Of a stretch of DNA of 14,811 nucleotides, positions 1 to 7,465 are shown piece after piece; positions within the stretch are counted from its first letter, which is position 1; every line of letters starts with the position of its first letter. A program made the translations under genes and the position numbers. Origin of the DNA: a virus (taxonomy: Duplodnaviria; Heunggongvirae; Uroviricota; Caudoviricetes). The stretch is taken from the IMG/VR virus record IMGVR_UViG_2548877010_000018. One strand, given 5' to 3'. The notes below the pieces were generated by a model. It was not told where the DNA came from. It did no database searches and was given only the letters and a program-made list of their open reading frames with translations.

Positions 1-615
1 GTTATGGGACTTGCCGGTGTTCTCCGGGGTAAAAAGGTCCGTACGACCATCAGCCGGAAAGCCGTTGCCGCAGGCGACCGCGTAAACCGTCAGTTCGTGG
101 CAGAACGACCTGACCAGCTGTGGGTGGCTGATTTTACTTACGTCAGCACATGGCAGGGCTTCGTCTATGTGGCGTTTATCATTGATGTGTTTGCCGGATA
201 CATCGTGGGGTGGCGGGTCTCATCGTCTATGGAAACGACATTCGTGCTGGATGCGCTGGAGCAGGCGTTGTGGGCCCGTCGTCCGTCTGGCACCATCCAT
301 CACAGCGATAAAGGCTCTCAGTATGTGTCACTGGCCTATACGGAGCGACTAAAAGAAGCCGGATTACTGGCATCAACAGGGAGTACAGGCGACTCGTATG
401 ACAACGCGATGGCTGAGAGCATCAATGGTCTTTACAAAGCGGAGGTAATACACCGTAAGAGCTGGAAAAACCGTGCAGAAGTGGAACTGGCCACACTAAC
501 GTGGGTGGACTGGTATAACAATCGACGATTGCTGGGAAGGCTGGGCCATACTCCTCCGGCAGAAGCAGAAAAAGCTTATTATGCTTCCATCGGAAACGAT
601 GATCTGGCAGCCTGA
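1..615 (+). CDS. IS3-family transposase OrfB (DDE integrase core), 5'-truncated by window edge
   Basis: ORF 4-615 translation is identical to the C-terminal 203 aa of the 296-aa OrfB at 9199-10089. The frame is open from base 1 (V codon preceding M). Confidence 0.85.
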   Translation, partial: VMGLAGVLRGKKVRTTISRKAVAAGDRVNRQFVAERPDQLWVADFTYVSTWQGFVYVAFIIDVFAGYIVGWRVSSSMETTFVLDALEQALWARRPSGTIHHSDKGSQYVSLAYTERLKEAGLLASTGSTGDSYDNAMAESINGLYKAEVIHRKSWKNRAEVELATLTWVDWYNNRRLLGRLGHTPPAEAEKAYYASIGNDDLAA

Positions 616-657
616 GTTCACAGATAAAACACTCTCCAGGAAACCCGGGGCGGTTCA
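1..657 (+). mobile_element. IS3-family insertion sequence (IS629/IS1203-like), 3' portion only; left part lies outside the window
   Basis: Bases 1-657 encode the same protein as the tail of the complete copy at 9157-10466 in opposite orientation (identical ORF translations). Terminal sequence ...cccggggcggttca ends at 657 with the CA end typical of IS3-family elements. Confidence 0.85.
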
Positions 658-2086: not shown

Positions 2087-2904
2087 GCAATCCCCCTGTC
2101 TGCAAACTTCCCTTCCCGAACTCCCGTTAACGAATCTTCCCTCAGCAGGTAATCAAAATCTGCCGTCCAGCCCGTGTCGTTGTCTCCGAAGTAAAACGGC
2201 TTGGCCTGATGCACAAACGCCCTGACATACGCTCTGAAACCGTCCACGTTTGGCGTTTTCAGTTGCGGGATAATTTTCTTCAGGCGGCGTTTTCGTTTCT
2301 CGTTGACCGCAACAGCGTGTGGAAGTCTGTCACCGACTTCGGTGTTGTAGGCGTTCAGGAAGGATTCGTAGTCGATTCGTTCTGCCTTGCGACGTTCAGG
2401 TTTAACCTGCCCATCGCCATCCCCGTTAGGGGGTAAGGGGGTATTTGTATTTATTGTCTTTTGTATATTGTCTTTTGTGTTTAGCTGACTTGGCTTATAC
2501 CCATTAGCCGACTTGGCTAATGTTTTATTAGCTGTTTTAGCTAATGTTAAGCTGTCCTGGCTAATCCACTGAGAAACCACCTTGTTCACTCCGATTTTCA
2601 CGCCATCAGCAATGAGGAATTTACGCTCAATAAGCTGGCGCTTGGCAGCGCAAACATGAGTGTGATGAATACCTGTCATGGCTGCTATCTGCGTGTTTGT
2701 GAGTCGATCCATCGGCTTATTGAATCCGTATGTCTTGCGCATGATAGCGAGCATCACCTTCAACTGCCGGACGGTTAAATCAGCCATCAGCAGACTGTCG
2801 GTAATCTCGTTAGCAACGCGCATGAAACCATCTTCGGTATCTGCCACGCGATGCTCCACGACCTCCAGTTGAGGCCTGTAATCAGCTAACTTAACGACGC
2901 CCAT
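2083..2904 (-). CDS. Replication initiator, lambda O-like / replisome organizer
   Basis: 273-aa ORF with an N-terminal winged-helix-like segment and a low-complexity linker encoded exactly over the iteron array, as in lambda O where ori sits inside the gene. SD aggagtg lies 5 nt upstream. Confidence 0.75.
2440..2564. repeat. Phage origin of replication: four iterons plus adjacent AT-rich direct repeat
   Basis: Iterons tagctgacttggctta (2482-2497), tagccgacttggctaa (2505-2520), tagctgttttagctaa (2529-2544) and taagctgtcctggctaa (2548-2564), spaced about 20-24 bp. Adjacent AT-rich tract with tattgtcttttgt repeated twice (2450-2477). Confidence 0.7.
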
Positions 2905-3052
2905 GTTTCACTCCTGCTTTGGCTAGTCTGTAAACACCAACAAGGCGCTCTGCGAACGCCCTGTTATTTGCTGCGGCTACCACTAATCCCTCAGGTGAAT
3001 CAGGGTGTCGAATCTCTTCTTTTTCCTGGTATTTCTTACGACGTTTTGTCAT
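2891..3052 (-). CDS. Hypothetical small basic protein (53 aa) between the cII-like and O-like genes
   Basis: ATG at 3052 (minus), open for 53 codons (MTKRRKKYQEKEEIRHPDSPEGLV...), stop overlaps the start of the O-like gene. Below the 60-aa ORF-track cutoff; no recognised family. Confidence 0.3.
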   Translation of the reverse strand: MTKRRKKYQEKEEIRHPDSPEGLVVAAANNRAFAERLVGVYRLAKAGVKHGRR

Positions 3053-3084
3053 AATTACTCCTGTGGATTGATCCAGTAATTCCC

Positions 3085-3381
3085 TCAGAATTGCATATCA
3101 ATTTGCTTAAAATCCTCGGTGGCAGCCGGGGATTTTTTCTTTGTGATTTCATCAAGCGCATACTTAAAAGCCCTGCTAATCGGACTGATGTCTGATGCCA
3201 TTCCGAAAGCACACAAGACCGAAGCAATAAACCGCCAGTCCGTTCTGCTTATCTTCGATTCATGACAGCCAATCATCTTTGCCAGACCGCGCTGTGTAAG
3301 CGTTGACAGGTTGATGAGTAAATCTGTTTCTGCGCGATCAACGTCGCGCTGTGATAGTTTGCTGTAACTTGTTCGTTCCAT
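3085..3381 (-). CDS. cII: CII-like transcriptional activator
   Basis: 98-aa ORF whose C-terminus (KKKSPAATEDFKQIDMQF) resembles the recalled lambda CII C-terminus (KKRPAATERSEQIQMEF). HTH-like core; sits after cro and nutR as in lambda. Confidence 0.7.
   Translation of the reverse strand: MERTSYSKLSQRDVDRAETDLLINLSTLTQRGLAKMIGCHESKISRTDWRFIASVLCAFGMASDISPISRAFKYALDEITKKKSPAATEDFKQIDMQF
3113..3141 (+). terminator. Intrinsic terminator antisense to the 3' end of the cII-like gene (OOP-like RNA terminator candidate)
   Basis: Hairpin cctcgg-tggcag-ccgggg (6-bp stem, one G-U) followed by attttttcttt on the + strand, inside the 3' end of the minus-strand cII-like gene. Confidence 0.4.
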
Positions 3382-3466
3382 TTCTTAAGATTTCCAATAG
3401 TGAATAGTTAGTTGAAAGGTATGCGTGGAAACGCATATGGCCTTAGTTGGTCAGATATCTTGGGAC

Positions 3467-3512
3467 TCGCTTTTCAGCGACGTAGGACGAATGTCCGTTG
3501 TTACAAAGAGCG
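3467..3512 (-). promoter_or_regulatory. nutR-like site (boxA + boxB) between cro and cII
   Basis: Minus-strand reading gives boxA-like cgctctttgtaacaa (3498-3512) and boxB-like hairpin tcgctgaaaagcga (3467-3480). The boxB core gctgaaaagc is shared with the nutL candidate at 6148-6161. Confidence 0.6.
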
Positions 3513-3522
3513 GCTCCGCTTA

Positions 3523-3738
3523 TTAAGCGGCTTTGTGCTCCGGCGGGAACACGTCATCAAGACTTACTTTTGCGCCTAACTTGTTTAGACACGCAACAAG
3601 AGCACGGCATGTTTTAAGGTCTGGGAAGCGACGACCAGATTCCCAATGTCCGATAGCTCCCTGTGTGCATCCAACTGCCTTAGCAAGTGTTGTTTGAGAG
3701 ATATTCAGTGACTCTCGATATTTTCGTAGGTTGCTCAT
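3523..3738 (-). CDS. cro: Cro-like repressor (XRE-family HTH)
   Basis: 71-aa ORF with HTH (QTTLAKAVGCTQGAIGHWESG), divergent from the cI gene across the operator region. SD ggaggg lies 5 nt before the ATG. Confidence 0.8.
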   Translation of the reverse strand: MSNLRKYRESLNISQTTLAKAVGCTQGAIGHWESGRRFPDLKTCRALVACLNKLGAKVSLDDVFPPEHKAA

Positions 3739-3854
3739 ATGCCCTCCATAGTAACCACGAATAAAAAATACAATATGTACTTCTCAAATACAAGTAAAAA
3801 TACACATTGTGCATGGATGGTTCCAGTACAGAGCGTAATAATAAGGACATGAAA
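3739..3854. promoter_or_regulatory. OR-type divergent operator/promoter region (pR for cro, pRM for cI)
   Basis: 116-bp AT-rich gap between divergent cro and cI. Contains near-palindrome tacaatatgta (3769-3779), perfect 9-bp palindrome cacattgtg (3803-3811) and repeated ATACAA half-site-like motifs. Individual -35/-10 boxes not confidently assigned. Confidence 0.55.
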
Positions 3855-4508
3855 ATGAAATGGTATGAACTGGCTAGATCCAGAATGAAAGAGCTCGGCA
3901 TAACTCAAGAGAAGTTAGCCGAAGAGCTAGGTATGACGCAGGGTGGAATTGGACACTGGTTGCGCGGATCTCGTCATCCATCTCTTAGTGATATTGGTGT
4001 GGTGTTTAAATACCTTGGTATTGATAACATATCATTCAACCACGACGGGACATTTTCACCTGTTGGCGAATACTCATCGGCCCCAGTTAAAAAACAATAT
4101 GAGTACCCTGTTTTTTCTCATGTTCAGGCTGGGATGTTCTCTCCAGAACTCAGAACCTTTACCAAAGGTGATGCGGAGAGATTGGTAAGCACAACCAAAA
4201 AAGCCAGTGACTCTGCATTCTGGCTTGAGGTTGAAGGTAACTCAATGACCGCACCAACAGGTTCCAAACCTAGTTTTCCTGACGGGATGTTAATTCTGGT
4301 TGACCCTGAGCAAGCTGTTGAGCCCGGCGATTTCTGCATAGCCAGACTTGGTGGTGATGAATTTACCTTCAAGAAACTGATCAGGGATAGCGGTCAGGTG
4401 TTTCTACAACCACTAAACCCGCAATATCCAATGATCCCATGCAATGAGAGTTGTTCCGTTGTGGGGAAAGTTATCGCCAGCCAATGGCCTGAAGAGACGT
4501 TTGGGTAA
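3855..4508 (+). CDS. cI: CI-type prophage repressor with LexA-like (S24) autocleavage domain
   Basis: C-terminal half ([21 protein letters not shown]...EVEGNSM...FKKL...[11 protein letters not shown]) matches lambda cI as recalled, including the Ala-Gly cleavage site and Ser/Lys dyad. N-terminal HTH domain is not lambda-like. ORF track starts at 3807 on TTG; ATG 3855 (SD aagga 7 nt upstream) or 3849 is the likely start. Confidence 0.85.
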
Positions 4509-7393: not shown

Positions 7394-7465
7394 GCGCGGC
7401 GTTACCGCATACCAATAACGCTTCACTCGAGGCGTTTTTCGTTATGTATAAATAAGGAGCACACC

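Follow-up and report, generated by a model that had tools for sequence, protein, structure and literature searches.

Positions 3047–3142 (+) of a 14,811-nt stretch of phage DNA, hereafter the window, correspond to the pO–oop–tO element of a lambdoid Stx-type prophage of the HK97/HK022 type, a reading to which we give a probability of roughly 0.85. In this reading, a sigma-70 promoter, pO, would direct synthesis of a 77-nt OOP RNA against cII. The oop element itself is real, ordinary and already known in this phage type; that it is expressed and acts in this phage we infer by analogy with lambda. A preliminary description of the window had proposed an OOP-like RNA antisense to the 3′ end of a cII-like gene, and the homology, fold and terminator described below support that proposal.

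Prophage context of the element

The window is the early region of a lambdoid prophage in reverse orientation (Table 1). The minus-strand gene previously described as cII-like is indeed cII by its Pfam match; its product is 35% identical to lambda CII and conserves the C-terminal KK(R/S)PAATE. Replication is encoded by a module of the P22/HK97 O type that includes a DnaB-like helicase, and a 53-aa gene, for which Pfam gave no match, lies between pO and O. The first codons of this small gene (ATG ACA AA) are common to lambda O and to orf48 of P22 and HK022, apparently because the extended −10 of pO is made up of these bases, read on the opposite strand. From 2850 to 3450 the window is 100% identical to Nil2 (AJ413274), Stx2 phage 1717, 2851 and several Stx2a phages; against HK97 the identity is 96.8%. 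E. coli O157 chromosomes carry the whole window at 100% identity.

Several other elements surround the locus. Two arms of 657 nt, 100% complementary, at window positions 1–657 and 9157–9813 belong to inverted copies of an IS3-family element (IS1203/IS629-type) that flank the entire replication/immunity segment, oop included. The left-hand copy runs off the window, and an ALIL frameshift pseudoknot (Rfam RF01497, 121.5 bits) lies at 10015–10131 (−), within the right-hand copy. Inversion or deletion between the two copies is conceivable, and the prophage segment between them may not be fully functional. A full-length match to the lambda cIII thermoregulator element is located at 7453–7511 (+) (Rfam RF01804, 88.5 bits, E 7e-21), and the lambda cIII translation switch is therefore also found in this prophage. 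Inside the first cII codons, TTGCTGTAACTTGT at 3359–3372 (+) fits the CII-binding repeat of pRE, TTGY-N6-TTGY, at the position where HK629, HK75 and phage 21 have an annotated CII site or pRE; it follows the oop terminator by about 220 nt on the same strand.

Table 1 Features of the pO–oop–tO locus and its surroundings, numbered from the first letter of the window
Feature	Position	Strand	Basis or remark
DnaB-like helicase gene	710–2086	−	part of the replication module
O-type replication protein	2083–2904	−	Pfam PF04492
53-aa gp53-like ORF (HK97 gp53 homologue)	2891–3052	−	in lambda O's place beside pO
Putative −35 of pO, TGGTAT	3027–3032	+	2/6 to TTGACA, 17-bp spacer; weak
pO extended −10, TG-T-CATAAT	3047–3055	+	identical to lambda
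LexA-type box CTGTGGATTGATCCAG	3061–3076	+	pattern match, one mismatch to CTGT-N8-ACAG; overlaps transcription start
Predicted OOP RNA, 77 nt	3063–3139	+	ends assigned by homology to lambda OOP 38675–38599
5′ hairpin (predicted)	3063–3106	+	RNA positions 1–44
cII, predicted antisense target	3085–3381	−	Pfam PF05269 Phage_CII, E 6e-32
Intrinsic terminator tO	3109–3142	+	12-pair stem 3109–3136, loop GGCA, U-tract 3133–3138, C, UUU
cro	3523–3738	−	
cI	3807–4508	+	

Promoter, predicted RNA and terminator

When window 2700–3500 is compared with lambda 38200–38900 by blastn, a single significant match emerges, 3045–3146 against 38693–38592 (79.4% over 102 bp, E 6e-22, no gaps), identifying the region as a sequence homologue of lambda pO–oop–tO. 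Because the rest of cII is only 35% identical as protein and the flanking genes give no match, the DNA similarity forms an island around the −10 and the terminator. We take lambda OOP to run from 38675 to 38599 on the complement. These coordinates agree with the lambda sequence, GUUGAUAGAUCC...UUUUUUA, and once transferred to the window they place +1 at G3063 and the 3′ end at about C3139. The transcript of roughly 80 nt proposed earlier is thus predicted by homology to be 77 nt long, the length reported for lambda OOP (PMC5488031, PMC3349717), with its start at G3063 rather than near 3062 and its 3′ end at about 3139. Without gaps, 58 of its 77 positions are identical to lambda OOP.

The predicted RNA folds into two hairpins at −30.2 kcal/mol, with the MFE and centroid structures in agreement, whereas 200 dinucleotide shuffles of 3063–3139 average −16.0 ± 2.9 kcal/mol (z −4.86), none of them as stable. 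It covers 55 nt of cII (3085–3139), comprising the last 52 coding nucleotides and the stop codon, and is by construction perfectly complementary to cII codons 82–98, the stop and 22 nt of the cII–gp53 spacer. A plus-strand ORF at 3119–3265 (48 aa, GTG start) was dismissed as a mechanical ORF that starts in the terminator loop and is without support.

The proposed −10, CATAAT at 3050–3055 (+), is present and is extended by TG at 3047–3048, positions −15/−14 (TGTCATAAT), which makes it identical to that of lambda pO. Its CAT, read on the other strand, is the ATG with which the downstream 53-aa gene starts. Over both strands of the 14.8-kb window, TGn(T/C)ATAAT occurs only once, at 3047. The −35 had been called weak, and TGGTAT at 3027–3032 is so: at equal spacing, lambda carries TTGAGT and P22 TGGTCA (4/6 each), against 2/6 here. 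With this poorer −35, pO may be weaker here than in lambda or P22, and the extended −10 TG at 3047–3048 would offset the weakness. A consensus promoter scan that demands 4/6 per hexamer did not list pO among its sites, since the −35 reaches only 2/6. In lambda, replacement of the −10 (ATTAT on the other strand) by GCGCG abolishes oop expression (PMC3349717).

Across IMG/VR, CATAAT stands at a fixed distance in 123 of 123 loci, even though the DNA upstream of it comes from no fewer than four unrelated modules: lambda O, HK97 gp53, P22/HK022 orf48 and one other. Every locus but one (L108) retains the TG at −15/−14, whereas base −13 varies between T, G and C, so that codon 2 of the downstream gene on the other strand reads Thr, Pro or Ala. 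Conservation of the −10 and leader could partly serve the start codon and ribosome site of that downstream gene, and we regard it as suggestive rather than as proof. A LexA-type box overlaps the predicted start (Table 1), and lambda has CTGTTGATAGATCCAG at the equivalent position; a passage in PMC5869508 that cites Lewis et al. 1994 places a LexA site within lambda oop–pO.

At the other end of the element, a strong plus-strand terminator had been placed inside the 3′ end of cII, and a 12-pair hairpin with a T-run is found there, within the ORF at 3085–3381 (−). The stem contains 5 G–C pairs, its core (cctcgg 3114–3119 / ccgggg 3126–3131) is followed on the 3′ side by TTTTTTCTTT (T-run 3133–3138, C, TTT 3140–3142), and the loop is 4 nt. 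We also considered a bidirectional terminator and rejected it: on the minus strand the stem is followed only by UUUU, AAGC, and the scan gave no minus-strand terminator there.

To follow the hairpin in related phages, we scanned IMG/VR with the conserved core and recovered 120 loci that collapse to 33 distinct RNA sequences; three more distant phages bring the alignment to 36 rows. The terminator helix is 98.4% paired across these 36 distinct variants. Two pairs have changed on both sides (20:15 and 20:16) and four on one side, these counts representing few ancestral events spread via recombination rather than many independent ones. Between the window and lambda, pair 3113:3132 is U–A here and C–G in lambda, and pair 3114:3131 is C–G here and G–C in lambda. 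On the cII strand, these four changes fall in the first two positions of two codons, Arg (CGT) to Asp (GAT) and Arg (CGC) to Ser (TCC). The double changes preserve pairing while replacing amino acids, and the stem has therefore been kept at the cost of two replacements. This pattern argues that the RNA structure is probably under selection beyond the coding sequence; the terminator does lie within coding sequence, so its conservation is partly due to other causes.

A single 5′ hairpin fixed across the family was tried and rejected, as the window register is 81% and the lambda register 76% paired across the alignment, and neither holds. In the lambda type, the 3′ strand CUGGAU pairs with CCAG, whereas in the window type AUCAAU pairs with UGAU, four bases upstream. 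Because the 5′ hairpin registers of the two alleles are shifted by 4 nt, covariation support is restricted to the terminator helix.

Conservation in distant loci and competing explanations

CATAAT and the leader GUG(G/A)AUUGAUCCAGU are retained in the phages P22, ST16-OXA48phi5.2 (Klebsiella) and Tbat2_3, which carry different terminator hairpins, with z-scores of −5.9, −4.6 and −2.5, respectively. We then scanned one genome per species for the promoter-plus-leader pattern, which yielded 60 genomes, mostly Enterobacterales (among them Erwinia, Pantoea, Citrobacter, Klebsiella, Raoultella, Kluyvera, Yersinia, Rahnella, Buttiauxella, Cedecea and Shimwellia), with 41 distinct downstream sequences. 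A hairpin and T-run end 59–77 nt past the predicted start in 38 of the 41 variants, with many unrelated stems; of the three exceptions, one lies on a truncated contig and two have a hairpin with a weaker T-run. In about 31 of the 41, the predicted RNA covers 35–60 nt at the 3′ end of a cII/C1-like ORF.

One variant of the Klebsiella/Raoultella type (L129 375–470; also L142, L143, L171, L179, L183 and L189) keeps the pO −10 and leader, and its hairpin, GAAAGCCG...CGGCUUUC, ends 7–10 nt short of the stop of the neighbouring ORF, with L142 and L189 differing in position. With its hairpin short of the ORF, this RNA would be antisense to the intercistronic spacer only. At some loci of this type, the neighbouring ORF is not recognisably cII.

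The scan also returned an oop identical to that of lambda in 19 loci among L131–L190. Three loci (L132, L137 and L140) are on low-coverage contigs (about 1x to 28x), two of them very short, from Bradyrhizobium, Pseudoxanthomonas and Shewanella assemblies, and further matches in unrelated taxa (Kitasatospora, Paenibacillus, Vibrio, Ruminococcus and others) are likewise on short or low-coverage contigs. This is most simply explained as contamination of public genomes by lambda DNA, from a spike-in or vector.

Conservation of this kind could in principle arise with no functional RNA, if the 100 bp were a linker at a module boundary, kept by recombination and by coding and translation-start constraints. 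The island does sit exactly at the junction of cII alleles with at least four unrelated downstream modules, 5′ and 3′ halves are often combined as mosaics, the CAT of the −10 is also the start codon of the next gene, and Hayes et al. found oop loci through 33 nt of similarity that had first been seen between HK620 and lambda. Yet a linker leaves unexplained the double compensatory changes that bring amino-acid replacements, the unrelated stems and T-runs at equal distance in P22-, Klebsiella- and Pantoea-type loci, and the retention of TG at −15/−14 while −13 varies. It is also at odds with the RNA detected in P22 from the same leader, and we consider it very improbable. We give hardly any credence to a further idea, that the hairpin alone matters, as a block to stray leftward antisense transcription on its way to pRE and cro/cI, with neither a dedicated promoter nor a discrete RNA. 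Such a role would suit a weak pO −35 and a strong terminator about 220 nt upstream of the pRE-type CII box TTGCTGTAACTTGT (3359–3372) on the same strand, but not an extended −10 that exactly matches the lambda pO validated by experiment and is held at a fixed distance in 123 IMG/VR loci and 60 genomes, nor a promoter–terminator distance kept at 59–77 nt.

A different question is whether cII is the principal target. The main role of the element might be control of replication, either because pO tunes the pR transcription that activates the origin or because OOP helps to silence theta replication, with control of cII secondary. In lambda, transcription driven by pR drops when pO is active, replication of both phage and plasmid suffers from a pO− mutation (PMC3985674), and the replication-inhibition phenotype requires an intact oop plus iterons (PMC3349717). 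That phenotype is, however, specific to replication genes of the lambda type, and a hybrid with P22-type replication escaped it (PMC3349717), whereas the module here is of the P22/HK97 O type with its DnaB-like helicase, and the 53-aa gene separates pO from O. We regard replication control as the main role as possible but doubtful; it is compatible with OOP as an antisense RNA to cII and does not exclude it.

Proposed function and comparison with known systems

Under the favoured reading of an antisense OOP, host sigma-70 RNA polymerase would start at G3063, as judged from lambda, at the extended −10 promoter TGTCATAAT. Transcription would proceed leftward in phage terms, against the pR operon, and would stop at the intrinsic terminator 3109–3142, giving a 77-nt RNA with two hairpins. 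This RNA would pair with the cII–gp53–O message (the pR transcript), and RNase III would cut the duplex, so that CII would be lowered and lytic growth favoured. In lambda, decay of cII mRNA by this route is RNase III-dependent (Krinke and Wulff 1987, 1990; Krinke et al. 1991, as reported in papers that cite them). By firing convergently, pO may also reduce the transcription that runs from pR into the replication genes, and the putative LexA-type box over the start may couple OOP synthesis to the SOS response.

A more radical version of that coupling can be imagined for the HK97/Nil2-type allele, which many Stx prophages carry: pO would have lost a usable −35 and would depend on the extended −10, and the conserved LexA-type box would make OOP strictly SOS-dependent, such that DNA damage shuts off cII by way of OOP. 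We think this improbable; if true, it would sharpen commitment to lytic growth and Shiga-toxin release in Stx prophages. The re-registered 5′ hairpin could, in addition, alter handling by RNase III or Hfq relative to lambda.

Transcripts from related loci are on record. A 63-nt P22 oop RNA that ends in a U-tract has been detected by RNA-seq and begins with GAUUGAUCCAG, 3 nt in from where the shared leader is predicted to start (PMC13397905), and OOP(BTP1) was detected in a Salmonella prophage transcriptome (PMC7067206). Our search of the literature on transcripts of O157, HK022- or HK97-type and Nil2/1717 phages returned sequence comparisons only. The physiological weight of OOP is probably modest, given that after SOS induction of lambda it plays little or no role in CII removal, and OOP mutations did not restore CII activity (PMC2327240). 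The sequence suggests that the lysis/lysogeny circuit of this Stx-type prophage keeps the classical antisense brake on cII, which would have an indirect bearing on how the prophage is induced and toxin released.

In practical terms, the finding exposes a gap in annotation, as oop is missing from both Rfam and RefSeq annotation. At gathering thresholds, Rfam gave no match in the oop region, and at E up to 10 it gave only chance-level matches (Ref55, BSnc120, His_leader and others), far below gathering scores; Rfam 15 therefore appears to have no OOP family. Of 5426 complete RefSeq genomes of E. coli, 1108 carry the 106-bp unit, and the annotation beneath it consists of CDS features alone. Together with the 41 more distant variants, our 36-variant alignment would suffice to seed an OOP family in Rfam.

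The element joins a set that phage biologists have already assembled. Hayes et al. 2012 (PLoS One, Figs S1/S2) aligned oop loci from 23 lambdoid phages, including Nil2 (AJ413274), HK97, HK022, H-19B, 933W and P22. Homologues in lambdoid and Stx phages are also given by Nejman-Falenczyk et al. 2015 (Plasmid 78:71), and PMC5488031 and PMC12197685 state that Stx phages carry OOP-like sequences. The published listings of Nil2/HK97-type oop rest on sequence comparison. Nil2 oop is the same allele as that of the window (100% over 2850–3450), with no difference found, and at the corresponding position the GenBank record of HK629 carries the remark 'similar to coliphage lambda oop RNA'. The P22 counterpart (P22C-oop, antisense to c1) stands further off: its RNA is shorter, about 63–66 nt, it ends in an unrelated stem (GCCUCAA...UUGAGGC), and it overlaps c1 by 38 nt, against 55 nt of cII here.

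Among known systems, lambda OOP with pO and tO is a close counterpart. The two elements share an identical TTTGTCATAAT (the extended −10, which overlaps the downstream gene's start codon), a predicted +1 at the same G and an equal predicted length of 77 nt with a LexA-type box over the start, a 55-nt overlap with cII that includes the stop codon (lambda 38599–38653), and a two-hairpin fold of −30.2 kcal/mol here and −28.5 kcal/mol in lambda. They differ in the gene that follows, which is the 53-aa gp53-like ORF here and O in lambda, in the register of the 5′ hairpin, shifted by 4 nt (3′ strand AUCAAU here for lambda CUGGAU), and in two terminator pairs that have been swapped.
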